Origin: an uncultured Chloroflexia bacterium
Lineage (GTDB): Bacteria; Chloroflexota; Limnocylindria; Limnocylindrales; CSP1-4
Length of the DNA: 31,884 nt
Direction of reading: 5' to 3'
NCBI GenBank assembly: GCA_963752475.1
Contig: CAVVYR010000020.1
Location: forward strand, 1-31,884
The position numbers were made by a program, and so were the translations under genes. This document shows, piece after piece, positions 9,890 to 27,401 of the stretch (positions are counted from its first letter, which is position 1; the number at the start of each line of letters is the position of its first letter). The notes beneath the pieces are model-generated. The model was not told the origin of the DNA, did no database searches, and saw nothing but the letters and a program-made list of their open reading frames with translations.

Positions 9890-10042
9890 CACCACAGTAT
9901 GGCCCGCGGCGACCCACTCGACCCGGACGAGCAAGGCGTCCGGCAAGCGATGGTGCAGTCGCGGTCCTGCTAGCCTCGAGCGAGCCAAGCTTCAACGACA
10001 GGCCCCACCGATGACCGCTCGACGACGGCGAACCAGCGCCGG

Positions 10043-10759
10043 ATGAGGATCCTCTGCTACGTCAACCACTATTACGGTGAGCCCATCGCCTTCAGCGGGC
10101 GATCGACCGATAGTGACGCCGAGGGCCGGCACCGTGCGGTCAGCGCGTGTCTCGAGGGCCTTCGCCGGATCGAAGGTGCCGAGGTCCAGGTCTGCGGCAT
10201 CAGCGGACGATCGCTCGAGCCGGTTGACATCGACTTCCCCGGGCTGCGAAGCACCCCCAGCCTGCTCGTCTATGAGTCACTCGCGCACATGGCCGGACGC
10301 ATCCACGAGGGCTTCGACTACTTCATCAACATCGAGGACGACATCCTACTCCCAGCGGAGACGCTCGCGAACACGGTGGAGTTCGACCGCGAGAGCCTGC
10401 CCAACGAGGTCTTCCTGCCCAACCGCCTGGAGTACGACGAGGCCGGACAGCCGTACTGTCTCGATTGGCGAGCCATGCCGGGCTGGACGAACCAGCGACG
10501 ACGCTTCCGCGGCCGCGAGATCCGCGTGGCCCACAACCCGCACTCGGGTGTGCTCATCCTCTCGCCCGGGAAGTTCCGCTACGCGCTCAGGCATCTCGAC
10601 GCTGGCCACCGTGGTCGTTCCATCGGCGCCGAGATGGCCTCCGCCTACGCCTACTACCACAGCCCGTTCTGCCTCTATCGCTCCTACGACGACCTGTCCT
10701 TCCATAACGTGTTCCACCTGGACCAGTGGGCCGGCCCCAGGTCACCGTCGGTGGCATGA
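10043..10759 (+). CDS. Uncharacterised protein with GT-A-like EDD motif
   Basis: FDYFINIEDDILL, FLPNRLEY, NPHSG.LILS; strong GC3 codon bias; ATGA overlap with the next gene. Confidence 0.7.
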   Translation: MRILCYVNHYYGEPIAFSGRSTDSDAEGRHRAVSACLEGLRRIEGAEVQVCGISGRSLEPVDIDFPGLRSTPSLLVYESLAHMAGRIHEGFDYFINIEDDILLPAETLANTVEFDRESLPNEVFLPNRLEYDEAGQPYCLDWRAMPGWTNQRRRFRGREIRVAHNPHSGVLILSPGKFRYALRHLDAGHRGRSIGAEMASAYAYYHSPFCLYRSYDDLSFHNVFHLDQWAGPRSPSVA

Positions 10760-13668: not shown

Positions 13669-13677
13669 TGCTACGTT
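13669..13677 (+). promoter_or_regulatory. Putative extended -10 of a leaderless transcript (TGc-TACGTT-N7-ATG)
   Basis: TGC TACGTT GACGCGC ATG(13685). Confidence 0.55.
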
Positions 13678-13684
13678 GACGCGC

Positions 13685-15022
13685 ATGCCTCGCAGCCTTG
13701 ACCTCCGACCAGCGACACTGCTGACGAGCGTCGTTGTCATCGCACTCATCGGGGCCGGGTTCATGCTCGCACTCGAGACCGCTGGCTCGCCTCAGTGTTG
13801 TGACGCCAGCGCATACGCGGCAGCGGCGCATAGCTTCCTCGACGGTGAGCCTAGCCTCAACCCGGCACACAACTATGGATACCCCGCATTCCTTGCGCTC
13901 CTCGACCTCATCGGACTCGACACTCCACGCAGGATCGCCTTCGCGCAGACGTCGTTGCTGTACCTCACCGTGCTCATCACGGCCTATGTCATCGCCCGCT
14001 GCACGAGCTCGGCGTTTGCTGTCGCTGTTGCCTGGCTCGCAGCTGTCACGCTGGTGCCAGCCGCGGCCTGGGGCGGCTTGATCTTCAGCGAGAGCCTAGC
14101 CGTACCGATGCTGCTGTTGGTCCTGGCGTTCGGCATCGCGACAGTGTTCCACTTGCTTCGCGATGCGCCGACCTGGGGCCTGGCAGTGGGTCTGGCCGTT
14201 GGTCTGGGCCTCACCAGCGGCTTCGTCTGGATGGTCCGACCAGGCCTGATCTGGATACCGATCGGAGTGGGCTTGGGAGTGCTGGCCTTGAGCGCCGGCC
14301 TCCTCTGGCGACGCGAGCGTCTCGGCTTGCTCGTGCCGGTGGCATTCGCCGTTTCGGCCATGCTGACGGTCGTACCCCAGCTTCAGCTAGGGGACCCACT
14401 CAAACTCGAGCTCGCCGAACTCCAGCGGGACGCGGGCCCCCAGGTGTTCCGCTATGCCACCGACCTGAGAAGCGAAGCACCGGCCGGGATGATCTTCTCA
14501 CCCCTGCCTGTGGGATCGGGTGCCGACCCGACAGTGGCCGAGCGCACGTCGGGCAGTCGCTCATGGCGCCTGACGGCGATGGCGGCCCACGTTGTGACCG
14601 GCTGGGACGCCCGGCCTTCGCCCAATTATGTCTACAAGCGGACCGGTAATCGCTGGATCGTCGCGACTGCGTTCTCGGGCTTCCTCATCGCTGGCGCGCT
14701 GGCCGCGGCCTGGCTCGTATGGGAGCGCCGCCGACGGTGGCTCGAGCCCGAGACTGCAGCGCCTGCCGCCCTGGTCGTGATGTTTGCGGCGAGCCAAGGG
14801 GTGATGTCCATGACCTCGGCGGAGTTCCGCTTCAACATCGTCGGCTGGCTGGTCGCCGCCTGCTGTCTGGCGATGCTCAGCGCCCTGGGATGGTGGACGC
14901 GTCGCCGAGCAGCAGCCTACATCGCCCTCGCCCTCGGCTTCAGCGCAGCCGTCCTGCTGGTGGGCCACATGACCCTGCTCTACTCGGAGCGGTGGCTCGA
15001 ATACGTGAACCTCCTCGGCTAG
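13685..15022 (+). CDS. Polytopic membrane protein, GT-C-like glycosyltransferase (paralogue 2)
   Basis: Shares PQCCDA..Y, HNY.Y.AFLALL, PAAAW.G...SE.LAVP, WM.RP.L.WIP, FRY.TD, TGWDARPSP.Y, TAFSGF and EFR.N..GWLVAA with 4253-5593. Convergent with the GtrA gene. Confidence 0.72.
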   Translation: MPRSLDLRPATLLTSVVVIALIGAGFMLALETAGSPQCCDASAYAAAAHSFLDGEPSLNPAHNYGYPAFLALLDLIGLDTPRRIAFAQTSLLYLTVLITAYVIARCTSSAFAVAVAWLAAVTLVPAAAWGGLIFSESLAVPMLLLVLAFGIATVFHLLRDAPTWGLAVGLAVGLGLTSGFVWMVRPGLIWIPIGVGLGVLALSAGLLWRRERLGLLVPVAFAVSAMLTVVPQLQLGDPLKLELAELQRDAGPQVFRYATDLRSEAPAGMIFSPLPVGSGADPTVAERTSGSRSWRLTAMAAHVVTGWDARPSPNYVYKRTGNRWIVATAFSGFLIAGALAAAWLVWERRRRWLEPETAAPAALVVMFAASQGVMSMTSAEFRFNIVGWLVAACCLAMLSALGWWTRRRAAAYIALALGFSAAVLLVGHMTLLYSERWLEYVNLLG

Positions 15023-15047
15023 GATGCACCCCCGGCAGGGGACGGCG

Positions 15048-15452
15048 TCAGCGCTCGGAGTCGGCCGTCGGCTGCTGCCCCGAGAACAACAGGCGCGCCA
15101 ATAGGTACGTGAGCGGGATGGTCACGGCGATGGCGGCGAGCGAGGCGAGCGCCTCTGGCAGGCCGAGGACATCGACCCAGGCCGTCACGACCGCCAGGCC
15201 GACCCCGTACTGCACGACGTAGATGAGCGGGAACAAGGCAAGCGTACGCACGCTGGTCGTGGCCCGGAAGACGAAGGTGCTGTTGAGCACATAGGAGATG
15301 CCGATGCCGACGACGAAGACCACGCTGTAGGCCAGGGCGTAGGGCAGGATCTGCAGCAGCAGCAGGTAGAGGCCGAGCGTGATGAACGTGGTAGTCGCGC
15401 CGGCGATGAGGAAGCGGACGCCGGACCCGGTCAGGCGCGGGCCCCGGCTCAC
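15048..15452 (-). CDS. GtrA-family lipid-carrier-sugar flippase
   Basis: 134 aa, 4 TM; VRFLIAG..TT, SYVLN..FVF; GTG start overlaps the upstream stop. Confidence 0.9.
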   Translation of the reverse strand: MSRGPRLTGSGVRFLIAGATTTFITLGLYLLLLQILPYALAYSVVFVVGIGISYVLNSTFVFRATTSVRTLALFPLIYVVQYGVGLAVVTAWVDVLGLPEALASLAAIAVTIPLTYLLARLLFSGQQPTADSER

Positions 15453-16213
15453 CGGTCGCGCGCCTGCTGGACGAGCGAGACGAACTCCCCGTAGTCACGG
15501 ATGTAGTCAGCCGGATCGTAGGGATCGCTCGCCAGCACCAGCAGGACCGCGTCCGATGAGCACTTGTACTGGATCCCCCAGGTCATCGCCGGCAGATGCA
15601 GCCCGTATGACGGGCTGTCCAGCACGAACTCCTGTCGCATCTCACCGTCGTCGGCGACCACAGCCAGCTGGCCCTGCGCCGCCACTAGCAGCTGCTGGCA
15701 CTGGCGGTGGGCGTGAGCACCGCGGGTCTCGGTGGAGGGCACGTCGTAGACCAAGAAGAAACGGGCGGGCTGGAACGGGATATCGGCTCCGGCCTCGGCG
15801 GCCGAGAGGCTGCCGCGGATGTCAGCCACGGTCCGGAAGTGGTGGAAGGTCACGCCGCGCACGAGCGACTCACGCATGTGTGAATCGCCGGGGCGGACCA
15901 CCGGCGAGGCCTCCTCGGCGTGGCTGTCGAGGTAGCCGACGATGCGTGCCGGATTGCCCTCGACAAGGGCGAGCGGCGGGACCGAGGTGGTGACCACGGA
16001 GCCGGGGCCCACGTGTGACCGATGGCCGATCTCGGTACCCGGCAGGATCGTGGCGTTGGCACCGATGACGCAACCCGAATGCAGCGTCGTCTGAGCCTCG
16101 GCGTCGTCCGGTGTCGCGAGGACGGCGGCGTTGGGGCCGATGGAGACGTCTGCCTCGATGATCACGCCATCGGCGACATAGGCACCGGGCAGGAGGGTGG
16201 GGTCAGCGGCCAT
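15449..16213 (-). CDS. wxcM: WxcM-like protein: shortened hexapeptide-repeat acyltransferase domain fused to FdtA/QdtA-type 3,4-ketoisomerase cupin
   Basis: IGANATILPG.EIG....VG.GSVVT..VP....V.GNPARIVGY, then DIRGSLS, IPF.P.RFFLVYDVPS.E.RG.HAH..C.Q, ADDG, W..QY...SDAVLLVLAS.PYD..DYIRDY. Confidence 0.85.
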   Translation of the reverse strand: MAADPTLLPGAYVADGVIIEADVSIGPNAAVLATPDDAEAQTTLHSGCVIGANATILPGTEIGHRSHVGPGSVVTTSVPPLALVEGNPARIVGYLDSHAEEASPVVRPGDSHMRESLVRGVTFHHFRTVADIRGSLSAAEAGADIPFQPARFFLVYDVPSTETRGAHAHRQCQQLLVAAQGQLAVVADDGEMRQEFVLDSPSYGLHLPAMTWGIQYKCSSDAVLLVLASDPYDPADYIRDYGEFVSLVQQARDR

Positions 16214-16215
16214 GG

Positions 16216-17235
16216 CTAGGGTTCAATGCCGTCTTGCGGCTCGTCGTTGTGGCCAGGCGCGACTTCGTCGGTCGGTCCCTCGACGTGGGCACGGACACCG
16301 GTGGGTCCGGACTCGTGATCGACCTGTTGCCAGATGACATGGAGCGGGCGCTGTTTGGTGTTCTCATAGGCTCGCCACGCATACGAGCCCACGATACCCA
16401 ATCCCACCAGATTGGTCGCGCCGACGAAGACGATGAGGACGGCCAGCGCCGTGAAGCCCTGGACCTCGGCGAGGCCCAGGAGCCGGACCACGGCCGCGAG
16501 CAGCCCGAAGGCACCGAACGCGAGTGCGAGAAGGCCACCGACCCGGGTCAGCAAGCGGACCGGCAGGTCGGTCACGGAGAAGACGCTGTCGGTGAGGTAG
16601 TCCATCTTCTTGCCAAAGGTCCAGGCCGAGCGACCATGGACTCGTTCGCGCCGCTCATATGTCACGTAGGCCCGGCGGAAGCCCAGCCAGAACACCTGTG
16701 CCACTAGCGAACTATGGTGCTCCTCGAGCGCCAGTAGCTGCTGGCGGAATGCCTGGTTGCAGGCGAAGACGTCGACGCCACCAGCCGGCATGTCTCGCAC
16801 GATCAACCGCCGGTAGATGCCCCAGAAGATCTGCGCCGGCAGCCGCGTGCTGGCAGGGTCCTGCCGTCCCTCGCGCACGCCAAGCACGACATCGGCAGCA
16901 TCGTCGCGGAGGATCTCGTCCATCTCCAAGATGAGCTCGGGCGGCTCCTGCAGATCGGCTGCCATGATCGCGAACCGGTCCCCAGTGGCGAGCTGTAGCC
17001 CGGCCCGCGCAGCCGGGAAGGCACCGAAGTTGCGCGACAGCACGGCCAGGCGAGAGCGCACGGGCCACGTCGGCAGTGCCTCCTGGAGCACCTCATAGGA
17101 GCGGTCGGGACTGCCGTCGACGACGAATACCGCCTCGAGCTCATCCGGCACCGCCTCGGCCATCCCCTGCACTGCCTCGAGCAAGTCGGGGATGGACTCC
17201 TCGTTGCGGTAGACGGGGATGATCAGCGAAAGCAT
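16216..17235 (-). CDS. GtrB-like undecaprenyl-phosphate glycosyltransferase (GT2, two C-terminal TM helices)
   Basis: LSLIIPVYRNE, VVDGSPDRS, LSRNFG, MAADLQEPPELI, R..G.S.WT, two TM helices, G.YAWR.YENTK.RP. Confidence 0.92.
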   Translation of the reverse strand: MLSLIIPVYRNEESIPDLLEAVQGMAEAVPDELEAVFVVDGSPDRSYEVLQEALPTWPVRSRLAVLSRNFGAFPAARAGLQLATGDRFAIMAADLQEPPELILEMDEILRDDAADVVLGVREGRQDPASTRLPAQIFWGIYRRLIVRDMPAGGVDVFACNQAFRQQLLALEEHHSSLVAQVFWLGFRRAYVTYERRERVHGRSAWTFGKKMDYLTDSVFSVTDLPVRLLTRVGGLLALAFGAFGLLAAVVRLLGLAEVQGFTALAVLIVFVGATNLVGLGIVGSYAWRAYENTKQRPLHVIWQQVDHESGPTGVRAHVEGPTDEVAPGHNDEPQDGIEP

Positions 17236-17237
17236 GG

Positions 17238-18374
17238 TCAGGTTCCCCCCTCGGTGAAGAACGTACCCACGACTTCGGTCACTCGTGCCTGCTCGTTGGG
17301 GCCGAGACCCGGATAGCAGGGCAACGACACGACGCTAGCGCAGGCTGCCTCGGTCACCGGCAGCTTCTTGGTGCGGCCGTGCTCGACGTACGCGGGCTGG
17401 AGGTGATCGGGGATCGGGTAGTGGACATCGCTGCCGATGCCGTTCGCAGCGAGGTGAGTCCTGAAGCGCTCGCGTTCGGAGATACGCGCGACGAACAGGT
17501 GAGCTACGTCCTCCTCGCCACGCACCGGAGTCAGCAGGATAGGCAAGCCCGAAAGGTCGCGGCGATAGGCATGTGCCACGAGGCGGCGCATCTCGTTCCA
17601 CTCGTCGAGGTGAGGCAGCCGATCGTTGAGGACGGCGGCCTGGATCTCATCCATGCGGCTATTCCGGCCGGCGGGCAAGTCCACGCGGTACTTGGCCTCC
17701 CAGCCATACTGCCGCAGCGATCGCACCCGATCCGCCAGCTCGGAATCGTCGGTCACGATGGCTCCGCCGTCGCCGGCCGCACCCAGGTTCTTGGTGGGGT
17801 AGAAGCTGAAGCAGCCGATAGCGGCGAAGCTCCCGGCGCGAGCGCCGCCATGCGTGGCGCCGTGGGCCTGAGCGCAATCCTCGATCACTGGGACGTCGGA
17901 GCGAGCAGCTTCGGCCAGGATGGCCTCGGTGTTGGCCAACTGCCCATATAGGTGCGTCACGATGATCGCCGCGGGCCGGTCCGCTCCCGTGCGGCCAGCG
18001 AGGGCCGCGGACAACGCGACCGGAGACATGTTCATGGAGGCTTCGTCGATCTCGACGTACTCCGGGATGGCCCCGACGGCGCGGACAGCGGTGCTGCCGT
18101 AGTGGCCGGCGTTGGCCACGACGAGGACATGGTCATCGGGACCGACCTCGAGGCTCCGCAGCGCGATCTCCAGGGCGTCTGTCCCGTTCGCGACGGCGAC
18201 ACACCGCTCGACGCCGCAGTACTCGGCAAAGGCCTCCTCGAAGCGTGCGACCTCTGCCCCCAGGACGTAGCGGCCCGACCGCACGACGCGGTCGATGGCT
18301 GCCCTGACATCGACCGCCCCCTCGATGGCGTCCAGGGAGACGAACGGGACGTGCTCCGCTGCCTCGGCGCTCAT
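17238..18374 (-). CDS. DegT/DnrJ/EryC1/StrS PLP aminotransferase (FdtB/QdtB-like)
   Basis: VANGTDALE, THLYGQ, IEDCAQAHGA, SFYPTKNLGA.GDGGA, NSRMDEIQAA, HYPIPDH.QPAY. Confidence 0.95.
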   Translation of the reverse strand: MSAEAAEHVPFVSLDAIEGAVDVRAAIDRVVRSGRYVLGAEVARFEEAFAEYCGVERCVAVANGTDALEIALRSLEVGPDDHVLVVANAGHYGSTAVRAVGAIPEYVEIDEASMNMSPVALSAALAGRTGADRPAAIIVTHLYGQLANTEAILAEAARSDVPVIEDCAQAHGATHGGARAGSFAAIGCFSFYPTKNLGAAGDGGAIVTDDSELADRVRSLRQYGWEAKYRVDLPAGRNSRMDEIQAAVLNDRLPHLDEWNEMRRLVAHAYRRDLSGLPILLTPVRGEEDVAHLFVARISERERFRTHLAANGIGSDVHYPIPDHLQPAYVEHGRTKKLPVTEAACASVVSLPCYPGLGPNEQARVTEVVGTFFTEGGT

Positions 18375-19708
18375 GCTTCGCGCTTCTTCTTCAGCCGAGC
18401 GGAGTAGAAGTCGCTCTCATCGGCGAGGACCACCTTGGTCGGCAGCATGTACGCGGCCAGTTGGTCCGCGCAGGCGTGGCGGATACGCTTCTTGAGGGAG
18501 GCTACCGACTCAGGCTCGACCGACGCGACCTTGGCCACCACGACCTGACCCAGGAGGGGATGCGACTCGCCGTAGACGGCGACGTCCTTGATGTTGGGGA
18601 GTTGGAGGATGGCCTGCTCGACCTCCGCCGGGTACACCTTCTGCCCCGCGACGTTGATGAGGTCGCTGTCACGGCCGAGGATGCGCAGCCAGTCGCCGTC
18701 GACCTCCACCAGGTCTTCCGTGTTGAACCATCCGCCCGCATCAAACGGGCTCGGCGCGTTCAGGTAGCCGACCATGGCGTAGTCCGACTTGATCCAAAGC
18801 ACACCGTCCACGACCTTGGTCTGGAAGCCCTCGCCGCCGACCTTGACCCAGAGCGAGCCGTCCTCGCGGGACTTGGAGCGCAGCACCCCCAGTTCCGACA
18901 GGCCGTAGGTCTGCTGAAGCAGGACGCCTGGGAAGGCCCGGCCCACGCGGTCGAGCGTCTCTTGGGGCATGACCTCCGTGCCGTAGGTGATGCGCTTGAG
19001 CGAACTGAGATCGTACTGTTCGACGGCGCCGGAGCGGATCAGCATGTTGAGGAACGACGGGGTGGTCGGGAGGATCTCGACGCGGTGCTGCTGGATGGCC
19101 GAGCAGATGGCCACGACCGATCGGTCGGGGACCGTGACCACCGTGCCCAGCCCGCTCAGGATGGCCAGGATGGTGTTGACGCCGCCGAAGTGGTCGAGCA
19201 TGAGGAAGGCGATAGCCACGCGGCTAGGGCCCTGCTTGCGGAACTTCTCGGCGACCAGCCGCATGTCGTGGAGGATGGCCTTGGGCGTCCCGGTCGACCC
19301 CGACGAGAAGAGGATCATGCCGGCATCGCGGCTCGATCGAAGACCGGCCACGAGCTCGTTCGTCGAGGTCCTATCCGTGCTCGAGAATGCCGGTTCACCA
19401 CTGGTGTAGTCGATGACCCACTGCGCCTCCGCCAGGTCGATGACGGTGTCGAGGTCGACGATGGCCTCCTGCGTGAACGGCACCACGATGCAGCTTGAAC
19501 GCATCAGCGCAAAGAGCAGGCACACGACCTCCGGCGAGTAGTCGCCCATGACCACCACGACGTCGCCGTCGGCCACGCCGTTCTCGCGCAACTGCTCACC
19601 GTACTGCTCGGTCAGCCTGTTCAGCTGCCTGTACGAGAACGCCCGCCCCTTGTCGATGAAGGCATTCCCATCGGGGGCGGTCTCGAAGCGTTCGAAGAGG
19701 AACTCCAT
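18371..19708 (-). CDS. AMP-dependent acyl ligase (ANL superfamily)
   Basis: LFSSGSTGTPK, YGLSE, WFNTEDL, GR.SDLINVAGQKVYPAEVE; RBS GAGGT. Confidence 0.93.
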   Translation of the reverse strand: MEFLFERFETAPDGNAFIDKGRAFSYRQLNRLTEQYGEQLRENGVADGDVVVVMGDYSPEVVCLLFALMRSSCIVVPFTQEAIVDLDTVIDLAEAQWVIDYTSGEPAFSSTDRTSTNELVAGLRSSRDAGMILFSSGSTGTPKAILHDMRLVAEKFRKQGPSRVAIAFLMLDHFGGVNTILAILSGLGTVVTVPDRSVVAICSAIQQHRVEILPTTPSFLNMLIRSGAVEQYDLSSLKRITYGTEVMPQETLDRVGRAFPGVLLQQTYGLSELGVLRSKSREDGSLWVKVGGEGFQTKVVDGVLWIKSDYAMVGYLNAPSPFDAGGWFNTEDLVEVDGDWLRILGRDSDLINVAGQKVYPAEVEQAILQLPNIKDVAVYGESHPLLGQVVVAKVASVEPESVASLKKRIRHACADQLAAYMLPTKVVLADESDFYSARLKKKREA

Positions 19709-19731
19709 GGCGCTACCTCACTTGCCGGACG

Positions 19732-20745
19732 TCACGTCCGAAGGATGCCGGTGGCCCAGGACATCCCGACGCCGAAACCACTGACGAGCACGAGCCCTCC
19801 CGGCTGCAGACAGCCCTGGTCCGTCGCGTCCTTGAGGGCGATGGGAATCGAGGCGGACACCGTGTTGCCGATGTCGCGGATGTTGGTGAACGCCTTCTCG
19901 GATGGGATCCCGAGTGACCGATTCAGCGCGTCCAGCGTGACCTTGCTCGCCTGGTGCATCACGACCAGGTCGATGTCATCGATGGTCAGGTCGTTACGTT
20001 CGAGCACCTCCCGGATCTGCGGCGGCACCCTGGCCTCGACGAACGCGAGGATGCCGGAGCCGTCCATGTAGATGTTGTCCTGTGACCGGACGCTGCCACC
20101 CAGATCGGCCCTGGGCTCGGCCGTCTCCGCCGATCGTGGCAGCCTGCAGCCTCCAGCCGGAACGATGAACATCTGGTGGTCCTTCCCGGCCGTGGCGCAC
20201 TGCACGTCGACGAGACCTCGGTCCGACTCCGAGACCGAGATCCACGTGGCCGCGGCCCCGTCACCGAAGAGGGTGCGGGCGGCCCGATCCCGTGGATGGA
20301 TGTACTTCGAGTAGGTATCGGCCGTGACGAGCAGGATGTCGCGGGCGATGCCGCCGGCGATGAGCGACTGTGCCAGCGCGAGGCCGTACACGAAGCCGGA
20401 GCAGGCGAGGTTGAAGTCGAGGGCGAAGACGTCGTCATCGAGCCCCAGGTGGCCATGCAGGAGCGTCGAGTCGGGTGGGAGCAGGTAGTCCCCGCTTTGA
20501 GTGCAGAACAGGATGGCGCCGATGCGCTCGCGCGCCTCAGGATGCTCGGCCAGCAGGCGGTCGCAGGCGTCGCGGGCCAGGTCGTAGGCGGTCTCGTCCG
20601 GCCGGGCGATGTGTCGCGACTCCACGCCCGTCCGCGTGACCACGCGCCGCATGTCCCAAGTCGGGTTCTCGTCGACCAGCATCTCGTTCGTGACGACCTG
20701 GTCGGGCAAGGCGTAGGCGATGGCTTGGATCTCAGCGTGCAGCAC
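19732..20745 (-). CDS. 3-oxoacyl-ACP synthase III (FabH-like)
   Basis: Cys-His-Asn triad in LACSGF, HQAS and GNTVSASIP; also LFGDGAAA and GFGVGMSW. Confidence 0.93.
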   Translation of the reverse strand: MLHAEIQAIAYALPDQVVTNEMLVDENPTWDMRRVVTRTGVESRHIARPDETAYDLARDACDRLLAEHPEARERIGAILFCTQSGDYLLPPDSTLLHGHLGLDDDVFALDFNLACSGFVYGLALAQSLIAGGIARDILLVTADTYSKYIHPRDRAARTLFGDGAAATWISVSESDRGLVDVQCATAGKDHQMFIVPAGGCRLPRSAETAEPRADLGGSVRSQDNIYMDGSGILAFVEARVPPQIREVLERNDLTIDDIDLVVMHQASKVTLDALNRSLGIPSEKAFTNIRDIGNTVSASIPIALKDATDQGCLQPGGLVLVSGFGVGMSWATGILRT

Positions 20746-21419
20746 TAGCTTGCGGCTCCGGAAGTTGCGGGCAGGCCGAGCAGTTCGCGAAGGGGCTCGT
20801 TGGCACGCTGGATCTCCCCGAAGACGGCCGGCCTCCCGTGGCCGGGATGGACCTCAGTGTCCGCCGGGAGCAACTCCCACAGCCGCTGCAATGAGGTCCT
20901 CAGTCCATCGCTGTCGGACTCCGGCATCGACCCGAGGAAGATGCCTTGTCGGTACAGGGTATCGCCCGTGAAGGCGTGTCCGTCGATCATCAGCACGACG
21001 CTGCCGGGCGTATGCCCAGGAACGTGCAGGACCTGCACCGTGATCTCACCCTCGGACAAGGACATGCCTTCGTCCAGGGTCACGGTCTCCGACGGTGCCT
21101 CTATACGCCAGGGCATCTTGAGAGCCATCATGGTGAAGTTGCTCGCGCGTGCCACGCGGCGGTCGGCGTCATGCAGGTACACGTCCACCTCGTACCGCTG
21201 GCGCAGGTGCTCCACCGACCCCACGTGGTCGAAGTGACCGTGGGTGCAAATGATGACCCGTGGCCTGAGTCCTGATCGCCCCAGAGCCGCTTCGATGGAC
21301 TCGCGATCGAGGCCCGGATCGATGAGGAGACAGCCACCCGAACCAGTGGGAACGATGTAGGTATTGGCCTGGACTTCGCGGTTCACCACCCGGATGATCT
21401 CCGGCCCGACCGCGCTCAT
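20745..21419 (-). CDS. Metallo-beta-lactamase-fold hydrolase (glyoxalase II-like)
   Basis: NTYIV, LIDPG, THGHFDH, PGHTPGS, FTGDTL, PGHG. Confidence 0.93.
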   Translation of the reverse strand: MSAVGPEIIRVVNREVQANTYIVPTGSGGCLLIDPGLDRESIEAALGRSGLRPRVIICTHGHFDHVGSVEHLRQRYEVDVYLHDADRRVARASNFTMMALKMPWRIEAPSETVTLDEGMSLSEGEITVQVLHVPGHTPGSVVLMIDGHAFTGDTLYRQGIFLGSMPESDSDGLRTSLQRLWELLPADTEVHPGHGRPAVFGEIQRANEPLRELLGLPATSGAAS

Positions 21420-22132
21420 CGATGGATGCCGCCAAGGAAGACGGTCTGACCGGTGACGTAGCCGCTGGCGGGCGAGGCGAAGAAGTCGATGACGTTGATG
21501 ACGTCCTCGGGCGTCGCAAGGCGGGAGATGGGCAGGCTGGCCAGCAGGTTCTCGACGGTCTCCGGCGGGAGCTGTTCGAGCATGTCAGTCTCGAGCGCGG
21601 TCACGCCAACGGCATTGACCGTGACGCCGTAACCCGCGAATTCCTTGGCCAGGACGGACGTCAGCGTCGAGGTGGCCGACTTCGTCGCGGCGTAGATCGC
21701 CTCGCCCACGGGTGAGAGGACTGAAGCGATCGAGCCGATGTTGATGATGCGTCCCATCGGGCGCTTGCGCATCAGTTTGGCCGCTTCGCGGGACACATAG
21801 AAGCCACCGAGCAGGTTCGTGCGCACCATCTCCTCGGCTTGCGAAGACGGGGTTAGCATGGCGTGTCGGACGGCTACGACCGCAGCGTTGTTGACGGCGA
21901 TGTCTACGGCTCCGTGTGACCGCGCGAGCTGCTGGAAGACCGCGCGGACGGCCGAGTCGTCTCCGATGTCGGCTTGGTGATGCTCGTAGGCCGCGTGTGC
22001 GATGCTGCTTGGGCCTCGACTGATGCCGACCACCGAGGCGCCCTCGACCAGGAAGTGCTCGGCGAGGATACGGCCCAGGCCCTTGCGCGTCCCAGTGATG
22101 ACGGCGACGTGGTCTCGGTAGCGCAGCGTCAC
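21416..22132 (-). CDS. SDR ketoreductase (FabG-like)
   Basis: ITGTRKGLG, NNAA, GRIINIGS, YAATK, TGQTVFLGG. Confidence 0.92.
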   Translation of the reverse strand: MTLRYRDHVAVITGTRKGLGRILAEHFLVEGASVVGISRGPSSIAHAAYEHHQADIGDDSAVRAVFQQLARSHGAVDIAVNNAAVVAVRHAMLTPSSQAEEMVRTNLLGGFYVSREAAKLMRKRPMGRIINIGSIASVLSPVGEAIYAATKSATSTLTSVLAKEFAGYGVTVNAVGVTALETDMLEQLPPETVENLLASLPISRLATPEDVINVIDFFASPASGYVTGQTVFLGGIHR

Positions 22133-22428
22133 TTCTCCGCGGCGAGCTCGAGGATGTAGTCGCGCAGGGTCGTGACCGTCGAGTACGGAGACACCGGGCG
22201 GGACATGGCTCGATCGTCAGCAAGGCTGATACCCAGCTCGTTCTCGACATTCATGGTCGTTTCGACGTCCGTGATCAGCGAGACGAACTCGAGCGAGTCG
22301 AGTGCCGCGTCCATCCCGAACAAGGTCGTCTCGGTGGAAATGGCGACCTGATCGTCGGGCTCTCGCTCCGAGTTGATGGCTTCCAGAGCTCGGAAGATGG
22401 CGGCGTCGATGGAGTCGGCAGTGATCAT
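22129..22428 (-). CDS. Acyl carrier protein
   Basis: 99 aa, acidic, LFG....LDSLEFVSLI phosphopantetheine-Ser motif; RBS AGAAAGGA; TGATG overlap with the upstream stop. Confidence 0.88.
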   Translation of the reverse strand: MITADSIDAAIFRALEAINSEREPDDQVAISTETTLFGMDAALDSLEFVSLITDVETTMNVENELGISLADDRAMSRPVSPYSTVTTLRDYILELAAEK

Positions 22429-23033
22429 CAGGTCCTTTCTGCGGGTGGTGTCGAGTTGATGAGGGCGTTCATGCGCGGCAGGGCGGTCTCGCGGAACTCT
22501 TGCTCCATCATGCCGACGCACACGATGTCGTGGAAGCGGTCGCCGATGAATTGGTGCTCGCGCAACCGGCCCTCCTCCTTCATGCCCAGGTAGAGGTGCC
22601 ACTTCAGCATCTGGTGGTTCTCGGCCACAACCGCACCGTGCAGCCGATGGAGCCCTAGGCGGTCGAAGGCCAGCTCATAGAGCAGCTTCAGCGCCTCGAC
22701 AGCGGCCGGCACACCCTTCACGGAATCGGGCTCCCCGATGAGGAACCTCGCGGGTTCCGCTCGCTGCTGGACACGGTCGACGTTCACGAGAGAGAGCATC
22801 CCCACGGACTGACCGTCCTTCAGCTCGATGATGAAGTTGTACTCGGTGTCGGGCCGTGCGCCGATCCAGGCGGCTTGCTCGGCCACGGTCGTGGCTCCAC
22901 GGTTGAGCAGCTCGGCGCGGTCACCCAGCCGCCATCCCAGTGTCGTCCCCGCATCCGCGGCTCGAAGCGGGCGCAACAGGACGTGCTCACCCGTCAGCTC
23001 GATATCCTCGATTGTCTGCACCACATCGCTCAC
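22428..23033 (-). CDS. GNAT N-acyltransferase (RimJ/PseH-like)
   Basis: VLLRPL...D, FIIE...GQ.VG, AFDRLGLHRL...V..EN, GMKEEGRLREH; GTG 23033 with GAGGG upstream. Confidence 0.88.
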   Translation of the reverse strand: MSDVVQTIEDIELTGEHVLLRPLRAADAGTTLGWRLGDRAELLNRGATTVAEQAAWIGARPDTEYNFIIELKDGQSVGMLSLVNVDRVQQRAEPARFLIGEPDSVKGVPAAVEALKLLYELAFDRLGLHRLHGAVVAENHQMLKWHLYLGMKEEGRLREHQFIGDRFHDIVCVGMMEQEFRETALPRMNALINSTPPAERT

Positions 23034-23086
23034 CCTGCGTCCCTCTGCTGCCGGTGGCCGCCCCGCTGGACCGCACCGATCCCTCC

Positions 23087-23112
23087 GTGACCGGGTCACC
23101 GGGTCCAGCATA
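23087..23112 (-). promoter_or_regulatory. Putative -10 (TATGCT) and operator-like palindrome for the 10-gene operon
   Basis: TATGCT at 23112-23107; GTGACC-G-GGTCAC at 23087-23099, just downstream of the predicted start site. Confidence 0.4.
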
Positions 23113-23145
23113 AAGCAGACCTCGGAGCCACCGGAATGCAAGGGC

Positions 23146-25317
23146 TCACGGTCCCTTGTGGGACTGTAGATCCAGCACTCGCTCCGGCGCGGAACCCACG
23201 TGCAGCGAGACAAAGAACGCTCTTGGGTCACCAGCGACGGCACAGCCAGGCGAGGTCACCTCGATCTCGACAGTGGCCTCGCCAGCTTCATCTAGCTCGA
23301 CCGGGACCGCGACAGACTGGCGCCCCCCATCGACCGAGGCCAGCTCCCCGTTCGCCAGCAGGCTCGCAGGCCCACACGGTGAAGGGCCGAACTCGAGCTC
23401 GACGTGGCTGCTGCCGGCGGGCAGGCCCGAGACGGCCACGACCGCCAAATCCTCGACCTGCCACCAGAACGGGTCCGTCGGAGTCCCTTCGGATCCGCTG
23501 AAGCCGCCGAGCGGGGTGACCACCGGGATTTGCGCCTCGTCGAGCCACTCGAAGTAGATCCAACGCTCCCTCGCGCTGGCCAGGTCCGGCACGCCCAGGA
23601 CGCTTGTATAGCGCTGCAGGTCGGCGGGGACCTCGAAGGAGGTCGTGTCCACGACGACGCCGCAGAAGCCCGCCTGTCGGCCGGCCTCGGCCAGCCTCTC
23701 GATGTCGTCGCGCATGTCGAGGCCCCACGTGCCCTCCGCCGTCCCCTTCATGCCACCATAGCTCCAGCGCAGGTCGTCGCTGACGAGGTAGGGGATCATC
23801 AGGGAGTAGGCCCAGAGCCCGTTGATCGAGCCGGCCTCCGGGAACTCCAGCAGCGGGAGCTGCAGGATCGGGCAGCCCTCAGGCAGCTCCGCCTCGAGCT
23901 CGTTCACGAAAGGCCTAACCTCGCGATCGAGAGCGTCGCTGTCGCCATAGTTCGCGAACCCGAGCGTGAGCGTCTCAAAGGCCAGGACTAGCGCCGCTAC
24001 AGCGGCAAGTCCGTTGCGGAGCCAACGCCGCCGCCGCAGCAGCTCGGTGGCGAGGATGCCCGCGGCCGCGGCCGCGAGGATAGCGATGAACACCGAGAAG
24101 CGACCCCAGGCCCTGATCTCGGGCGTCACGAGGTAGGCGAAGAGCACCCCGCCGCCAACGGACGCGAACATGATGAGGACCACAAGCAGGAGGCCCTGCA
24201 GGTAGCCGATCCGGCGCTGAGCACGAAGCCAGCTGCTGAGCCAGCCACCGGCAGCGGCAGGCCGGAAGAGTGCCACGACCAGCACCACGACCACGAGGAA
24301 GAGGGCGGCGATGATGACCACATTGAAGGCTGCGGTGCCCTCGTCGTAGACAAGCAGCCGGTTGAACTCTGGCCGCAGCTTGGTCAGGGCCGTGGCGAAC
24401 ATCGACCTCGTGTCCGGCAGGAACAGCGATGCCACCGTCCCGCCGTAGAGGGTCGAGTCGTGCGCGGTCCGATGCCAGCCGGTACCGTACGTGTGCTGGG
24501 CGGCGCTGTTCAGCACCACCGTCACTCCCATCACAGCCGGGACCGCGACCGCGATGACCACGCTGGGCCACCTGATGGGTCGTGCTCGCCAGGAGAGCAG
24601 CCGACGGACGAGCACGACGGCCATCAGGAGCGAGGTCATGAAGGCGTAGTAGATGCCACCGAGACCGGCCAACAGCACGAGCGCCAGCCCGCCGACCAGC
24701 CGCAGCGGACGCCCGCGGTCGAAGTAGCCTCGCCAAACGGCGACGACCAGGCCGACGCCGACGATCGCAGGAGCGTAGCTGGCGAGGAAGAGGTGACCGA
24801 CCGCGCGGGCGAAGTGCCACGGCAGCAACGCCAACGCGGCCGCAAGTACGATGGCACCGAAGCGATAGACACCCAGCAGGCGCAGCAACAGGTAGGCGCT
24901 GAGCCCGATCTGGAAGAAGCCGACGATGATGTACGAGTTGATCGCGGTCACAGCGTCGCCGAACACTCGGGCCAGAGGCACGAGATGCGCCCAGTGATAG
25001 GTGTCGGTCAGGATCGGGACCTGCATGATGTCCTGGAACCCCGGGTAGCCGAGGTTCGGGTTGCGCGTAAGGTCGCCGCCTTCGAGCGTGCCCTTCAGGA
25101 ACCCGGTCAGAGGTGTGAGGTCACCACCCGCACCCAGGAGCACATCGAGATCGGCTGGATTCAGGCGATAGACGACCACGGCCACCGCGACGCAGAGCAG
25201 TCCGACGAGAGCGCCGATGACTGACTCATGCATCCAGTCCCGGGTCGCCCATGGGGCCCGCTCGCTGGGGCTCACGTAGGCATTGCTCCCAGGCTCCCTG
25301 ACCGGACCCTCCGTCAA
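23146..25317 (-). CDS. Large polytopic membrane protein, probable GT-C-fold glycosyltransferase with C-terminal extracytoplasmic domain; start uncertain
   Basis: GGD after TM1, NPNLGYPG, LPWHFAR..GHLFLASY, GIYYAF, EIRAWGRFS, ILQLP...FPE, LRWSYG.MKG; many TM segments. TTG 25317 overlaps the rmd stop (TTGA). Confidence 0.72.
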   Translation of the reverse strand: MTEGPVREPGSNAYVSPSERAPWATRDWMHESVIGALVGLLCVAVAVVVYRLNPADLDVLLGAGGDLTPLTGFLKGTLEGGDLTRNPNLGYPGFQDIMQVPILTDTYHWAHLVPLARVFGDAVTAINSYIIVGFFQIGLSAYLLLRLLGVYRFGAIVLAAALALLPWHFARAVGHLFLASYAPAIVGVGLVVAVWRGYFDRGRPLRLVGGLALVLLAGLGGIYYAFMTSLLMAVVLVRRLLSWRARPIRWPSVVIAVAVPAVMGVTVVLNSAAQHTYGTGWHRTAHDSTLYGGTVASLFLPDTRSMFATALTKLRPEFNRLLVYDEGTAAFNVVIIAALFLVVVVLVVALFRPAAAGGWLSSWLRAQRRIGYLQGLLLVVLIMFASVGGGVLFAYLVTPEIRAWGRFSVFIAILAAAAAGILATELLRRRRWLRNGLAAVAALVLAFETLTLGFANYGDSDALDREVRPFVNELEAELPEGCPILQLPLLEFPEAGSINGLWAYSLMIPYLVSDDLRWSYGGMKGTAEGTWGLDMRDDIERLAEAGRQAGFCGVVVDTTSFEVPADLQRYTSVLGVPDLASARERWIYFEWLDEAQIPVVTPLGGFSGSEGTPTDPFWWQVEDLAVVAVSGLPAGSSHVELEFGPSPCGPASLLANGELASVDGGRQSVAVPVELDEAGEATVEIEVTSPGCAVAGDPRAFFVSLHVGSAPERVLDLQSHKGP

Positions 25318-26221
25318 GCCTTGGTCACCTCCTGCAGCACGTCGGACAGGGTCGTCTCGAACGGAATCGCTGGCGACCAACCCACCCAATCGTGCAGGCG
25401 CTGCGCGTCACCCACGATCAGCTCAGGATCGCTGGCTCGCAGCAGCGACGGGTCCAGGTCGAACTCGACCGGCCAGTCGACCGACCGGCTGAAGTGGTCG
25501 ATGATGTCGCGCACCTTGACCGGGTGACCGGTGGCCACGTTGAAGACCGGCGGCTGGGGGATCTCTTCATCAGCGGCCGCGTGCTCCAGCATCAGGCGAT
25601 AGGCCCGTACGGTGTCCCGCACGTCACCGATATCCCGGGCCACGTCCACGTTCCCGACACGGATCGAGTCGCGGCCATCCCTCTTGGCGGCCGCGATCCG
25701 CCCGGCCATGGCCGGGACCACGAAGTCGTGACGCTGCCCTGGCCCGGTGTGGTTGAAGGACCGGGCCACGACGGCCCGCAGCCCCTGCATCGCACCCCAC
25801 AGTGTTACGCCTTCGGCCCCCAGCTTGGAGTGCCCGTAGACGTTGCGCGGCCCCAGCCGGCTGGACTCGGTCAGGGGCTGGCCACACTCGGGGTGGGCGT
25901 AGACATCAGCTGAACCGACGACCAGCAGCGCGGGACGCGGCTCGAGCATGCGGCCAGCCTCGACGACCGAGAGTGTCCCTCCGACGTTCGTGCGCAGGGC
26001 CAGCCCGGGATCCTCCTCCGCGTCGGGCGCGAACGCGACACCCGCCAAGTGCGCGACGCCGTCAGGCAGCTCACTGCGCAACAGCGCCTCGACCGCCTTG
26101 GCGTCGGCGACATCAAGCTGATCGATCGGCGGAGCCGGGATCGGCACATGACCGGCCTGCTCAAGCTCCTTCAAGAGCCAGCGCCCGACGAAGCCATCGG
26201 CGCCGGTCACAAGGATGCGCA

Positions 26222-26222
<1 letters not shown>
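25314..26222 (-). CDS. rmd: GDP-4-keto-6-deoxy-D-mannose reductase (Rmd-like; GDP-D-rhamnose or its 4-epimer)
   Basis: MRILVTGADGFVG, HLAG, VGSADVY, YGHSK, RSFNHTGPGQ, VGN.D..RD..DVRD.V.AY; TGATG-coupled to gmd. Confidence 0.8.
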
Positions 26223-27298
<1,076 letters not shown>

Positions 27299-27401
27299 TC
27301 ATCGGATGCTCAGGCCACGGTGGTGGCCTGAGGCGGTGTGCTCAGCACCGGGCGCCGCACTCGAAACCCATTCCGTTCACAGAGTGAGGAGGAGCGCGGC
27401 T

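Follow-up and report, generated by a model that had tools for sequence, protein, structure and literature searches.

A ten-gene operon that may build an N-acylated 3-amino-3,6-dideoxy sugar and export it on a lipid carrier

Organization of the locus and its gene products

The window, i.e. the whole analyzed stretch of 31,884 nt, contains ten co-oriented and tightly coupled genes on its minus strand (15048-23033), as determined by ORF calls and by Pfam and NCBIfam searches. The ten genes, the families given for them, and junctions consisting of overlaps or 2-nt spacers with a single 23-nt gap had all been described in the first-pass annotation, and the searches and coordinates bore this out. 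The GNAT and ACP genes overlap by 1 nt, with the ACP ATG lying over the GNAT stop codon, followed by overlaps of 4 nt (ACP/SDR), 4 nt (SDR/MBL), and 1 nt (MBL/KAS III). The sole larger gap in the row, 23 nt, separates the KAS III and ligase genes. The ligase and aminotransferase genes overlap by 4 nt, gaps of 2 nt each precede the GT2 gene and the FdtA fusion gene, and the latter overlaps the GtrA gene by 4 nt. However, the co-directional array continues upstream to 27268 with genes for a 747-aa membrane protein, an epimerase/reductase, and gmd, which had been missed.

The first six genes form an acyl block. The GNAT (22428-23033; 201 aa; GTG start) belongs to Acetyltransf_3 (Pfam, 7.3e-13) and is the proposed N-acyltransferase for a dTDP-3-amino sugar. 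The dedicated ACP (22129-22428; 99 aa) gave a weak PP-binding match (E 0.07) and an NCBIfam ACP match below the cut-off (2.6e-4), but Ser45 of the LDSL motif, the DSL serine, is invariant in 31/31 aligned homologues. The FabG-like ketoreductase (21416-22132; 238 aa; adh_short 4.2e-38) matches FabG models at about 1e-47, below their equivalog cut-offs (NCBIfam), and its translation shows the motifs TGxxxGxG and YxxxK. The MBL-fold protein (20745-21419; 224 aa; Lactamase_B 1.5e-27) is of the glyoxalase II/YcbL type and a proposed thioester hydrolase. It contains the metal motif THGHFDH and matches GloB (3.8e-24) and SolJ (1.1e-22), both below the NCBIfam cut-off, as well as PDB 2zwr (1.8e-31) and 2xf4 (5e-21). 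The FabH-like KAS III (19732-20745; 337 aa; ACP_syn_III_C 1.4e-28) exceeded the cut-off of NCBIfam PRK09352 (254.9 versus 249 bits), and the alignment with PDB 3gwa (9.6e-78) showed that the triad of Cys (LACSGF), His (VMHQAS), and Asn (IGNTVS) is kept. The sixth gene (18371-19708) encodes a short class I adenylate-forming ligase of 445 aa with AMP-binding (3.5e-40) and AMP-binding_C domains. No other gene of the block is as conserved; its homologues share 53-88% identity and nearly all have a length of about 445-450 aa. Its best PDB match is FadD13 (9e-28), and it also matches CoA-ligase models of NCBIfam. A FabD above the cut-off is encoded elsewhere in the same genome.

The sugar genes follow. 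The DegT-family PLP aminotransferase (17238-18374; 378 aa; DegT_DnrJ_EryC1 1.4e-99) had its best PDB matches to 2oga (5.9e-81), QdtB (3frk, 1.9e-73), 5u1z, and WbpE, whereas perosamine synthase was matched at only 6.5e-43. Judged by these scores, it is closest to C3 enzymes of the FdtB/QdtB/DesV type. The protein previously labeled WxcM-like (15449-16213) is a fusion of a truncated hexapeptide (LbH) domain at residues of about 1-105 (Hexapep 1.4e-15) and an FdtA 3,4-ketoisomerase domain at residues 120-248 (FdtA 2.6e-49, Pfam). The label holds for the isomerase domain, but it left the N-terminally truncated LbH remnant unmentioned. The FdtA domain retains the HxH motif (RGAHAHRQ) and scores better against FdtD (1.3e-45) and FdtA (2.1e-29) than against QdtA (1.7e-19). 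RmlB (above the cut-off) and an RmlA-like gene are present elsewhere in the same genome. At the family level, the evidence points to a dTDP-3-amino-3,6-dideoxyhexose as the sugar product, more FdtA-like than QdtA-like.

Recurrence of the acyl block with sugar genes

The ligase was used to fetch 80 genome loci and 80 metagenome loci, many of the metagenome contigs being short. All six genes of the acyl block were present in 62/80 genome loci, mostly in the same order, and the record titles of the cassette loci name about 11 phyla. Because of this recurrence, the grouping of the genes is not chance, and the block is a conserved, mobile, and widespread cassette. The ACP was found in 66/80 genome loci and GNAT homologues in 62/80, directly before the ACP gene. 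No published study of the six-gene block was found.

An FdtA gene lay no more than 10 kb from the ligase gene in 61/80 genome loci, and the same number applied to a C3-type aminotransferase. Both accompany the complete block in 49 of its 62 genome loci. The respective numbers for the metagenome loci were 41/80 and 37/80. The earlier proposal that the acyl half and the sugar half belong together is thus supported.

Proposed pathway and transfer of the acyl group

We consider it reasonably, if not strongly, probable that the whole of the following explanation applies: the operon is a horizontally acquired, glycan-tailoring unit that makes an N-acylated 3-amino-3,6-dideoxy sugar and exports it on a lipid carrier, in a host that probably lacks LPS. 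RmlA and RmlB would make dTDP-4-keto-6-deoxyglucose, the FdtA domain would form the 3-keto sugar from it, and the DegT enzyme would aminate C3, as judged from the protein families. KAS III would catalyze one condensation on the dedicated ACP, and reduction by the FabG-like enzyme would yield a 3-hydroxyacyl thioester, the simplest product being 3-hydroxybutanoyl. The GNAT would then move the acyl group to the amino group of the sugar. The least certain steps are those of the ligase, which might supply or re-activate the acid, and of the MBL-fold enzyme, which might hydrolyze the thioester. The GtrB-like GT2 would transfer the N-acyl sugar to polyprenyl phosphate, GtrA would aid its membrane crossing, and a GT-C-like protein, of either 448 or 747 aa, would attach it to a polymer or protein at the surface. 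The parts are of known kinds and precedents have been described for every step; the operon is akin to FdtA/B plus FdhC, the viosamine island, and wxcK-N. The enzymes FdhC and QdhC transfer 3-hydroxybutanoyl groups to Fuc3N and Qui3N (PMC4869667), and vioS/vioR/acp/vioB lead to N-(3-hydroxybutanoyl)viosamine (PMC3927599).

Two domains encoded by the operon could transfer the acyl group. An LbH domain was found beside the cassette in only 3/80 genome and 3/80 metagenome loci, and the GNAT is therefore the likely N-acyltransferase, as had been claimed before. This assignment is based on the co-conservation of the GNAT and on the precedent of FdhC, a solved GNAT sugar N-acyltransferase that was reached by the family profile of the window GNAT (5kta, 5.2e-10). 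The same profile scored better against SpeG-like GNATs, i.e. spermidine acetyltransferases (1e-16), than against FdhC, which counts against an acyl-transfer role.

That the N-acyltransferase is instead the LbH domain, as it is in FdtD, WxcM, and VioB, and that the GNAT performs, e.g., a second acylation or acts on another substrate, seems very improbable to us. It is true that, among solved structures, the bifunctional protein 4mzu is nearest (1.9e-66) and that full-length LbH-FdtA fusions lie beside the cassette in four loci (L038, L075, L168, and L172). In addition, the P. syringae viosamine island uses the LbH protein VioB for acyl transfer (PMC3927599). However, residues 5-249 of the fusion match chain residues 53-303 of 4mzu, and the protein lacks about 56 N-terminal residues found both in 4mzu and in two full-length fusions; a remnant was sought upstream of the fusion gene and none was found. 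Furthermore, only 6/160 loci have an LbH domain beside the cassette, compared with the 62/80 genome loci for the GNAT. The truncated LbH domain of the fusion is probably vestigial.

In the first-pass annotation, the ligase was assigned to loading of the ACP and the MBL-fold enzyme to possible editing of thioesters, roles that are less secure than was stated there. The roles of the ligase and the MBL-fold enzyme allow a second route to the acylated sugar. Close relatives of the ligase (65-75% identity) are found on contigs where no ACP, KAS III, or MBL genes are nearby. In two loci, a relative lies beside a methyltransferase gene and a GT2 or PMT_2 gene (L104, L113), and in a third (L017), the ligase occurs with FdtA and the aminotransferase and no cassette within 10 kb. 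Therefore, the ligase may not serve the ACP. The chain could be built on the ACP and released by the MBL enzyme as a 3-hydroxy acid, the ligase could convert it to an acyl-CoA or acyl-AMP, and the GNAT could use the CoA thioester, all other steps remaining unchanged. Such a relay would give both enzymes a plain catalytic role. The MBL enzyme is nearest to hydroxyacyl-thioester hydrolases (GloB and PDB 2xf4/7l0b), and the ligase most resembles acyl-CoA synthetases. CoA donors are usual for GNATs, and the donor reported for the related FdhC is 3-hydroxybutanoyl-CoA and not an ACP thioester. Nevertheless, building on an ACP followed by hydrolysis and re-activation would cost ATP, and in loci with both a GNAT and an ACP gene the two are neighbors, overlapping in the window. 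Loading of private ACPs by ANL ligases is, moreover, well known, e.g. from the ACP/ACS pair that acts in the sphingolipid synthesis of bacteria (PMC9386255). We regard this relay as possible but rather unlikely.

Proposed lipid carrier and candidate extracytoplasmic transferases

The favored pathway requires export of the N-acyl sugar on a lipid carrier, and a polyprenyl-phosphate route had been proposed for the operon. The proposed polyprenyl-phosphate sugar synthase is a GtrB/ArnC/PgfS-like GT2 of 339 aa (16216-17235; Glycos_transf_2 7.7e-20) that matches PgfS (1.2e-40) and ArnC (1.3e-38) over about 300 residues, both below the NCBIfam cut-off. Two C-terminal membrane helices are visible as hydrophobic stretches in its translation. 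The small membrane protein (15048-15452; 134 aa) clearly exceeds the Pfam cut-off for GtrA_DPMS_TM (2e-19; 70.4 versus 26.1 bits) and is proposed to help the lipid-linked sugar across the membrane. The route is therefore plausible.

Co-conservation, which holds for the acyl and sugar genes, did not generally extend to the Gtr genes. The GT2 accompanied the cassette in only 3/80 genome and 4/80 metagenome loci (one of the four weak, 26% identity), and GtrA in 2/80 and 1/80, respectively. Therefore, the full system is a minority arrangement. The GT2 is absent from 77/80 genome and 76/80 metagenome cassette loci, and the dTDP-sugar would thus normally be used by other transferases. Two independent modules might be mere neighbors in the window, with a cytoplasmic (Leloir) glycosyltransferase using the dTDP-N-acyl sugar and GT2/GtrA carrying a different one. 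The additional GT2/GT4 genes and the GDP-6-deoxyhexose pathway of the window would fit this arrangement, but we judge it improbable. The GT2 gene is inserted between the aminotransferase and isomerase genes with 2-nt gaps, and the GtrA gene overlaps the isomerase gene. Six further loci, belonging to several phyla, likewise have the GT2 directly next to FdtA or the aminotransferase (L004, L005, L021, L109, L112, and L117), and GtrA is found together with it in three of them (L004, L021, and L109). Downstream of the GT2, L112 has a small ORF and two PMT_2-like (GT-C) proteins, of which one exceeds the cut-off (37.8 bits) and the other scores 21 bits. The same pairing of a GT2 with sugar genes is found in wxcK-L-M-N of Xanthomonas, where the FucNAc branches are lost upon mutation of wxcK or wxcN (PMC4878081).

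For the last step of the lipid-carrier pathway, a polytopic membrane protein of 448 aa, encoded convergently to the operon (13676-15022, plus strand), had been named as the GT-C. Sequence searches of Pfam, NCBIfam, and the PDB gave no match for it. The comparison with PMT_2 proteins of the same genome by hhalign yielded a probability of 51.7% (E 1.5e-4), and its Atlas (language-model) features resemble PMT_2/RgtA-like clusters, which lends modest support to a GT-C assignment. The AF2 model was unusable (pLDDT 42.6). Only four relatives were found, one of which is a paralogue in the window (4253-5593) that adjoins a polyprenyl-phosphate-type GT2 gene (3366-4142).

This protein is not the single candidate, as the 747-aa membrane protein encoded co-directionally upstream of the operon had been overlooked (23146-25389, minus strand; translation may in fact start at 25317). 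It had no Pfam match, and for neither candidate was a Pfam GT-C model reached even at E 10. The Atlas features of the 747-aa protein resemble clusters named DUF6311/YfhO. It has 4014 relatives, and 90 that were scanned gave sub-threshold hits only, to DUF6056 (7), DUF6541 (2), and PMT (1). Near the cassette, homologues of the 448-aa protein occurred in 0/160 loci and of the 747-aa protein in 1/160, namely in L021, upstream of the cassette (26% identity over 507 aa, E 8e-14). The window also contains a GDP-mannose dehydratase pathway to GDP-6-deoxyhexose and further GT2 and GT4 genes, and these other sugar genes could instead feed the GT2 or the GT-C candidates.

The ten-gene row and its setting

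The assembly comprises 4.25 Mb on 38 contigs and is 88.8% complete, and the window is the entire contig C20. Pfam, NCBIfam and the coordinates bore out the first-pass annotation in its description of ten tightly joined minus-strand open reading frames of stated families at 15048-23033. In the direction of transcription, these encode a GNAT (22428-23033), an ACP (22129-22428), a FabG-like SDR (21416-22132), an MBL hydrolase (20745-21419), a KAS III (19732-20745), an AMP-ligase (18371-19708), a DegT aminotransferase (17238-18374), a GT2 (16216-17235), a WxcM-like protein (15449-16213) and GtrA (15048-15452). The successive junctions are overlaps of 1, 4, 4 and 1 nt, a gap of 23 nt, an overlap of 4 nt, two gaps of 2 nt and a final overlap of 4 nt. 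Three amendments were necessary: the ACP matches PP-binding only weakly, the WxcM-like protein joins a hexapeptide (LbH) domain to an FdtA domain (both by Pfam), and the co-directional array extends upstream. There, 112 nt separate the GNAT gene from the gene for a 747-aa membrane protein (23146-25389, minus strand), which is directly preceded by co-directional genes for a GDP-mannose 4,6-dehydratase and an epimerase/reductase (25314-27268, minus strand). The dehydratase scored 419.5 bits against an NCBIfam cut-off of 415 bits, so that a GDP-6-deoxyhexose would be made beside the row. A scan of 14500-27500 revealed no promoter-like site and one terminator-like site, which lies within the GtrA gene and did not exceed shuffled sequences.

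A mis-binned foreign contig was considered and dropped, as the GC content (0.671) and the tetranucleotide distance (0.0079) lie within the range of the assembly's other contigs of 20-30 kb. Searches of 40 relatives of the host genome, which represent 24 species of the same genus, detected neither the ligase (at E 1e-40) nor FdtA. As the genes were not detected in congeners and the contig composition is normal for the assembly, the block has the appearance of a surface-glycan module that was acquired and is specific to the species.

Occurrence of the acyl cassette beside sugar genes

The distribution of the six acyl genes, from GNAT to ligase, was analyzed at loci retrieved with the ligase. The genome scan covered one genome per species (185,579 species) and yielded 195 ligase relatives, from which 80 loci, each including 10-kb flanks, were retained and compared with the window proteins by tblastn. 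The many close relatives of the ligase have a nearly fixed length of about 445-450 aa and 59-88% identity, and their source annotation describes them only as adenylate-forming enzymes. The SDR and the KAS III were each found at 73 of the 80 loci, the MBL hydrolase at 69, the ACP at 66 and the GNAT at 62, and all six genes were present together at 62 loci. The FdtA domain and the aminotransferase were each detected at 61 of the 80 loci, and both accompanied 49 of the 62 complete cassettes. A metagenome scan yielded 170 ligase relatives and 80 loci, many of these loci spanning only 2-10 kb, and the same pattern was observed (FdtA 41, aminotransferase 37, GNAT 35). Among the remaining window genes, none co-occurred with the cassette beyond generic matches to SDR, GT2 and gmd.

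The most common gene order was GNAT-ACP-SDR-MBL-KAS III-(extra genes)-ligase-FdtA-aminotransferase. At 16 of the 80 genome loci, the KAS III (43-64% identity) abuts the ligase, as it does in the window, whereas in a long variant (53 loci) about 3 kb separate the ligase from a more distant KAS III (27-31% identity); the remaining 11 loci have another or an unassigned spacing. In a long variant from a Mycobacterium rhizamassiliense record (L077:6759-9733), the DNA between KAS III and ligase encodes a MaoC-dehydratase/SDR fusion of 400 aa and a 591-aa protein for which no Pfam family was found. This gene content suggests that the product of the long variant would be an acyl group that is dehydrated, reduced or longer.

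According to the record titles, the carriers belong to about 11 phyla, i.e., Chloroflexota, Actinomycetota, Pseudomonadota (alpha, beta and gamma), Acidobacteriota, Gemmatimonadota, Bacteroidota, Myxococcota, Planctomycetota, Binatia, Bdellovibrionota and one candidate-phylum MAG, and they include the culturable genera Duganella, Polynucleobacter, Sphingomonas, Methylobacterium and Modestobacter. Judged by gene neighborhood, the acyl genes are a conserved mobile cassette that is tied to FdtA and FdtB. A description of the cassette was not found in the literature searched, outside which most subscription journals lie, and within these bounds the conserved six-gene set with ligase and MBL, as well as the long variant, appears to be undescribed.

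Predicted sugar, acyl group and N-acyltransferase

The FdtA domain of the fusion protein (residues 120-248) matched PF05523 with 166.8 bits against a cut-off of 23 bits, and this was the sole match in the genome. The closest solved relative of the fusion is 4mzu (1.9e-66), the bifunctional ketoisomerase/N-acetyltransferase FdtD of Shewanella denitrificans, with which it shares the catalytic HxH pair (RGAHAHRQ aligned to RGEHAHKE). The pair, His49/His51 in FdtA numbering, is invariant among the three fusions compared. The domain scored best with FdtD (1.3e-45), followed by FdtA (2.1e-29) and QdtA (1.7e-19), a ranking by sequence score that does not fix the galacto or gluco stereochemistry. The aminotransferase matched PF01041 (DegT, 1.4e-99), and its best PDB matches were 2oga, 7b0d, 7n63, QdtB (3frk), 5u1z and WbpE (5.9e-81 to 9e-67 for 2oga, QdtB, 5u1z and WbpE). 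Among these, 2oga, 5u1z and WbpE act at C3. C4 enzymes scored at least 30 orders of magnitude weaker, with perosamine synthases at 6.5e-43, and by its closest relatives the aminotransferase is predicted to be of the C3 type (FdtB/QdtB/DesV). The substrate dTDP-4-keto-6-deoxyglucose would be available, because RmlB (over cut-off) and an RmlA-like protein are encoded on another contig of the genome.

The sugar genes of the row resemble region 3 of the Xanthomonas campestris wxc cluster, which contains wxcK (aminotransferase), wxcL (GT2), wxcM (LbH-FdtA fusion), wxcN (small membrane protein) and wxcO. Both regions have the aminotransferase, GT2, fusion and small membrane protein genes in one block. 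In contrast to the window, region 3 has no ACP cassette and uses acetyl as the acyl group, the LbH part of the window fusion is shortened, and the Xanthomonas host is a diderm whose target is the LPS O-antigen. PMC4878081 describes the loss of FucNAc side branches in wxcK and wxcN mutants, and the roles of the wxc genes are discussed in PMC13133917.

In the acyl half, the ACP stayed below the cut-offs of both PP-binding (13.8 versus 20.8 bits, E 0.07) and NCBIfam (20.8 versus 70 bits); its LDSL serine (Ser45), the putative phosphopantetheine attachment site, is invariant in 31 of 31 homologues. For the KAS III, both PF08541 and PF08545 were present, PRK09352 was over its cut-off, and the positions of the Cys-His-Asn triad align with 3gwa. 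The SDR motifs and the HxHxDH motif can be read in the translations of the reductase and the MBL hydrolase, respectively, and FabD is encoded elsewhere in the genome. One condensation and one reduction would give a 3-hydroxyacyl thioester, in the simplest case 3-hydroxybutanoyl.

A genetic precedent for such an acyl supply is the viosamine island of Pseudomonas syringae (vioA, vioS, vioR, acp, vioB, vioM, vioT), which is related to the flagellin glycosylation island of P. aeruginosa PAK. According to PMC3927599, a private ACP, the FabH-like VioS, the FabG-like VioR and the LbH transferase VioB lead to N-(3-hydroxybutanoyl)viosamine, and a vioR mutant lost the viosamine sugar from its glycan. 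The window likewise places an ACP of its own next to a FabH-like condensing enzyme, a FabG-like reductase and an aminosugar aminotransferase. However, the sugar of the island is a 4-amino sugar made without FdtA, whereas that of the window is predicted to be a 3-amino sugar; the transferase is the LbH protein VioB instead of a candidate GNAT; and the sugar is transferred to flagellin by a soluble enzyme and not via polyprenyl phosphate.

The fusion protein of the window also contains an LbH domain, which raises the question of which enzyme acylates the sugar. The start of its LbH part aligns with 4mzu at about residue 53, so that part of the acyltransferase beta-helix is absent. About 56 N-terminal residues are missing that are present in 4mzu and in the full-length LbH-FdtA fusions of two other cassette loci (L075 and L038), and a search upstream of the fusion gene revealed no N-terminal LbH remnant in any frame. 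The left-handed beta-helix domain is thus incomplete. An LbH domain was found beside the cassette at only 6 of the 160 loci (3 of 80 in each scan), whereas the GNAT is a constant cassette member, and therefore the GNAT is the better candidate for the N-acyltransferase.

Compared with FdhC (5kta), the single GNAT sequence gave 4.4e-4 and a profile built from 32 cassette GNATs gave 5.2e-10, and SpeG-type enzymes ranked higher (1e-16). The GNAT is thus only distantly related to FdhC and nearer to SpeG-like GNATs. The FdhC acyl donor is a CoA thioester. The FdtA/FdtB and FdhC (QdhC) pathway gives dTDP-Fuc3N or dTDP-Qui3N with (R)-3-hydroxybutanoyl in E. coli O103, Salmonella O55, Hafnia alvei and Acinetobacter, and its products go to cytoplasmic glycosyltransferases, whereas the window row has a GtrB-like enzyme. 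PMC4869667 cites FdhC and QdhC as the enzymes that transfer 3-hydroxybutanoyl to Fuc3N and Qui3N in the O-antigens of enterobacteria and of Acinetobacter. The window has in common with this pathway a 3,4-ketoisomerase, a predicted C3 aminotransferase and a GNAT-fold protein as the candidate N-acyltransferase for a dTDP-3-amino-3,6-dideoxyhexose. In the passages of that paper considered here, the FdhC clusters are not said to include an ACP, a KAS III, a reductase, a ligase or an MBL hydrolase, all five of which are present in the window row.

The ligase and the MBL hydrolase, which are in the window cassette, are also absent from the viosamine island. The first-pass annotation proposed that the ligase loads the ACP and that the MBL hydrolase may edit thioesters, which is coherent. 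Also coherent is a relay in which the MBL hydrolase would free the acid and the ligase would activate it again, so that a GNAT that depends on CoA could use it. Some weight is added to the relay by two contigs (L104:38-5038 and L113:59-5292), which encode a protein of 289-346 aa, a Methyltransf_12 protein and a close ligase relative (65-75% identity), followed by a GT2 in L104 and by a PMT_2 protein in L113, and on which an ACP, a KAS III and an MBL hydrolase were not found. It gains further weight from a genome locus (L017) at which the ligase is accompanied by FdtA and the aminotransferase only. A system similar in principle is that of the tetronate genes wbeK-N of Vibrio cholerae O1, which are dedicated genes of an O-antigen locus that provide an unusual N-acyl group for the 6-deoxy aminosugar perosamine. 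An ACP and an acyl ligase belong to this set. It differs from the window in using GDP-perosamine and in lacking a KAS III, an MBL hydrolase and Gtr-type export. Tetronate requires wbeL, which has an ATP-binding motif (PMC3441752).

Each element of the window system has a described precedent, namely FdtA/B with FdhC, the viosamine island, wxcK-N and the Gtr systems. Beyond these precedents, we put forward a single joint proposal, tentatively and with more doubt than confidence: the six-gene block would be an uncharacterized, horizontally mobile mini fatty-acid/polyketide line dedicated solely to the production of a tailor-made N-acyl cap for 3-amino-3,6-dideoxy sugars; its product would be other than plain 3-hydroxybutanoyl from the CoA pool; the ligase and the MBL hydrolase would perform chemistry undescribed in glycan tailoring (an ACP-to-acid-to-CoA/AMP relay or direct amide formation); and, here and in a few genomes, the sugar would be added outside the membrane in a Gtr-like manner.

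Where rare aminosugars bear N-acyl caps, these shape the antigenicity of the bacterial surface and its recognition by phages. To our knowledge, the acyl source of most such caps is either unknown or assumed to be the CoA pool. The cassette would represent a compact, transferable six-gene acyl supply line linked to the FdtA/FdtB sugar pathway, and its value lies in an annotation rule and a modest enzymology lead rather than in a new principle. As culturable carriers exist, the acyl group made and its uptake by the GNAT from the ACP are testable questions.

Proposed export and candidate extracytoplasmic transferases

The GT2 of the row matched PF00535 (7.7e-20), and over about 300 residues PgfS (139.6 bits, 1.2e-40) and ArnC (132.8 bits, 1.3e-38), both far below the equivalog cut-offs of 500 and 529. 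Inspection of the translation by eye revealed two hydrophobic helices at its end. GtrA matched PF04138 with 70.4 bits against a cut-off of 26.1. A GT2 with apparent C-terminal membrane helices that is most like PgfS and ArnC, a GtrA-family protein and neighboring polytopic membrane proteins are shared with the three-component systems (GtrA/GtrB/Gtr-type GT-C, CsbB-GtcA-YfhO, ArnC-ArnT, PgfS). However, their donors are UDP-Glc, UDP-GlcNAc and UDP-Ara4FN, whereas the donor in the window would be a dTDP-N-acyl-3-amino sugar, and neither of the two candidate membrane proteins of 448 and 747 aa matches a GT-C family model.

Near the cassette, the GT2 was found at 3 of the 80 genome loci (L004, L005, L021) and at 4 of the 80 metagenome loci (L109, L112, L117 and, weakly with 26% identity, L107), and GtrA at 2 and 1, respectively. 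Where present, the GT2 directly adjoins FdtA or the aminotransferase (Limnocylindrales, Binatia and Polaromonas records and three metagenome contigs). A metagenome scan with the GT2 protein itself yielded no relative. The system proposed in the first-pass annotation is reasonable as a whole, and its acyl-sugar half has become better grounded; the export half is plausible but a minority arrangement. LpxC and BamA models found no match in the assembly at its 88.8% completeness, which favors a wall polymer, a lipoglycan or a glycoprotein over an O-antigen as the acceptor.

In the metagenome locus L112 (15004-21260), the row of cassette, FdtA, aminotransferase and GT2 is followed on its 3' side by a 138-aa ORF and then by a pair of large PMT_2-like membrane proteins. 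One of them gave a sub-threshold match (21 bits), and the other exceeded the cut-off (37.8 bits) and has a C-terminal NPCBM domain. A separate protein with PA14 and NPCBM domains follows this pair.

In the window, a convergent 448-aa polytopic membrane protein (13676-15022, plus strand) adjoins GtrA. Its designation as the GT-C partner could not be confirmed: searches of Pfam, NCBIfam and the PDB gave no match, and a comparison with five PMT_2 proteins of the same genome gave an hhalign probability of 51.7% (E 1.5e-4). Its language-model features resemble PMT_2/RgtA clusters, and a fold model from a 4-sequence alignment (mean pLDDT 42.6) was too poor for use. Only three relatives besides itself were found, one of which is a paralogue within the window (4253-5593, minus strand; 446 aa, 47% identity). 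This paralogue lies directly upstream of a gene for a 258-aa GT2 (3366-4142, minus strand), whose weak NCBIfam matches are polyprenyl/dolichyl-phosphate sugar synthases (ArnC, PgfS, DPM-like, PpgS), and the two look like a second lipid-carrier glycosylation pair on the contig.

The 747-aa protein belongs to a family of 4014 relatives for which no Pfam model was found. In its features it is similar to clusters that bear the names DUF6311 or YfhO, and a homologue lies upstream of the cassette in the Polaromonas locus L021. Among 90 scanned relatives, 10 have sub-threshold matches to DUF6056, DUF6541 or PMT, and 2 have a C-terminal DUF7024. The hhalign probability was 14% in the GT-C test and 2% between the 747-aa and the 448-aa families. 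Neither protein was matched when the genome was searched with the DUF6311, YfhO and PMT_2 Pfam models at E values up to 10, and neither family profile matched a PDB sequence. One of these two proteins may be the extracytoplasmic transferase, or both may have this role. The 448-aa protein is slightly favored, because it adjoins GtrA, because its paralogue is paired with a GT2, and because of the gene arrangement in L112.

Additional genes were observed in the window. An IS-type transposase (HTH and rve integrase core; 5719-6792, plus strand) lies within the polysaccharide region, flanked by the paralogue pair on one side and by a group of DHDPS-family, SDR and methyltransferase genes on the other. 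Between the two glycosylation groups, 10043-12612 (plus strand) and 8585-9988 (minus strand) contain putative ORFs of 238, 628 and 467 aa; Pfam and NCBIfam revealed no family for the first two and only a Methyltransf_24 domain for the third. Two sulfotransferase-family genes are present at 30152-31683 (minus strand), and sulfotransferase-like genes also occur close to the cassette in the M. rhizamassiliense locus (L077:11412-12431) and, fused to Wzt_C, in the Polaromonas locus (L021:659-2329); the glycan may be sulfated.
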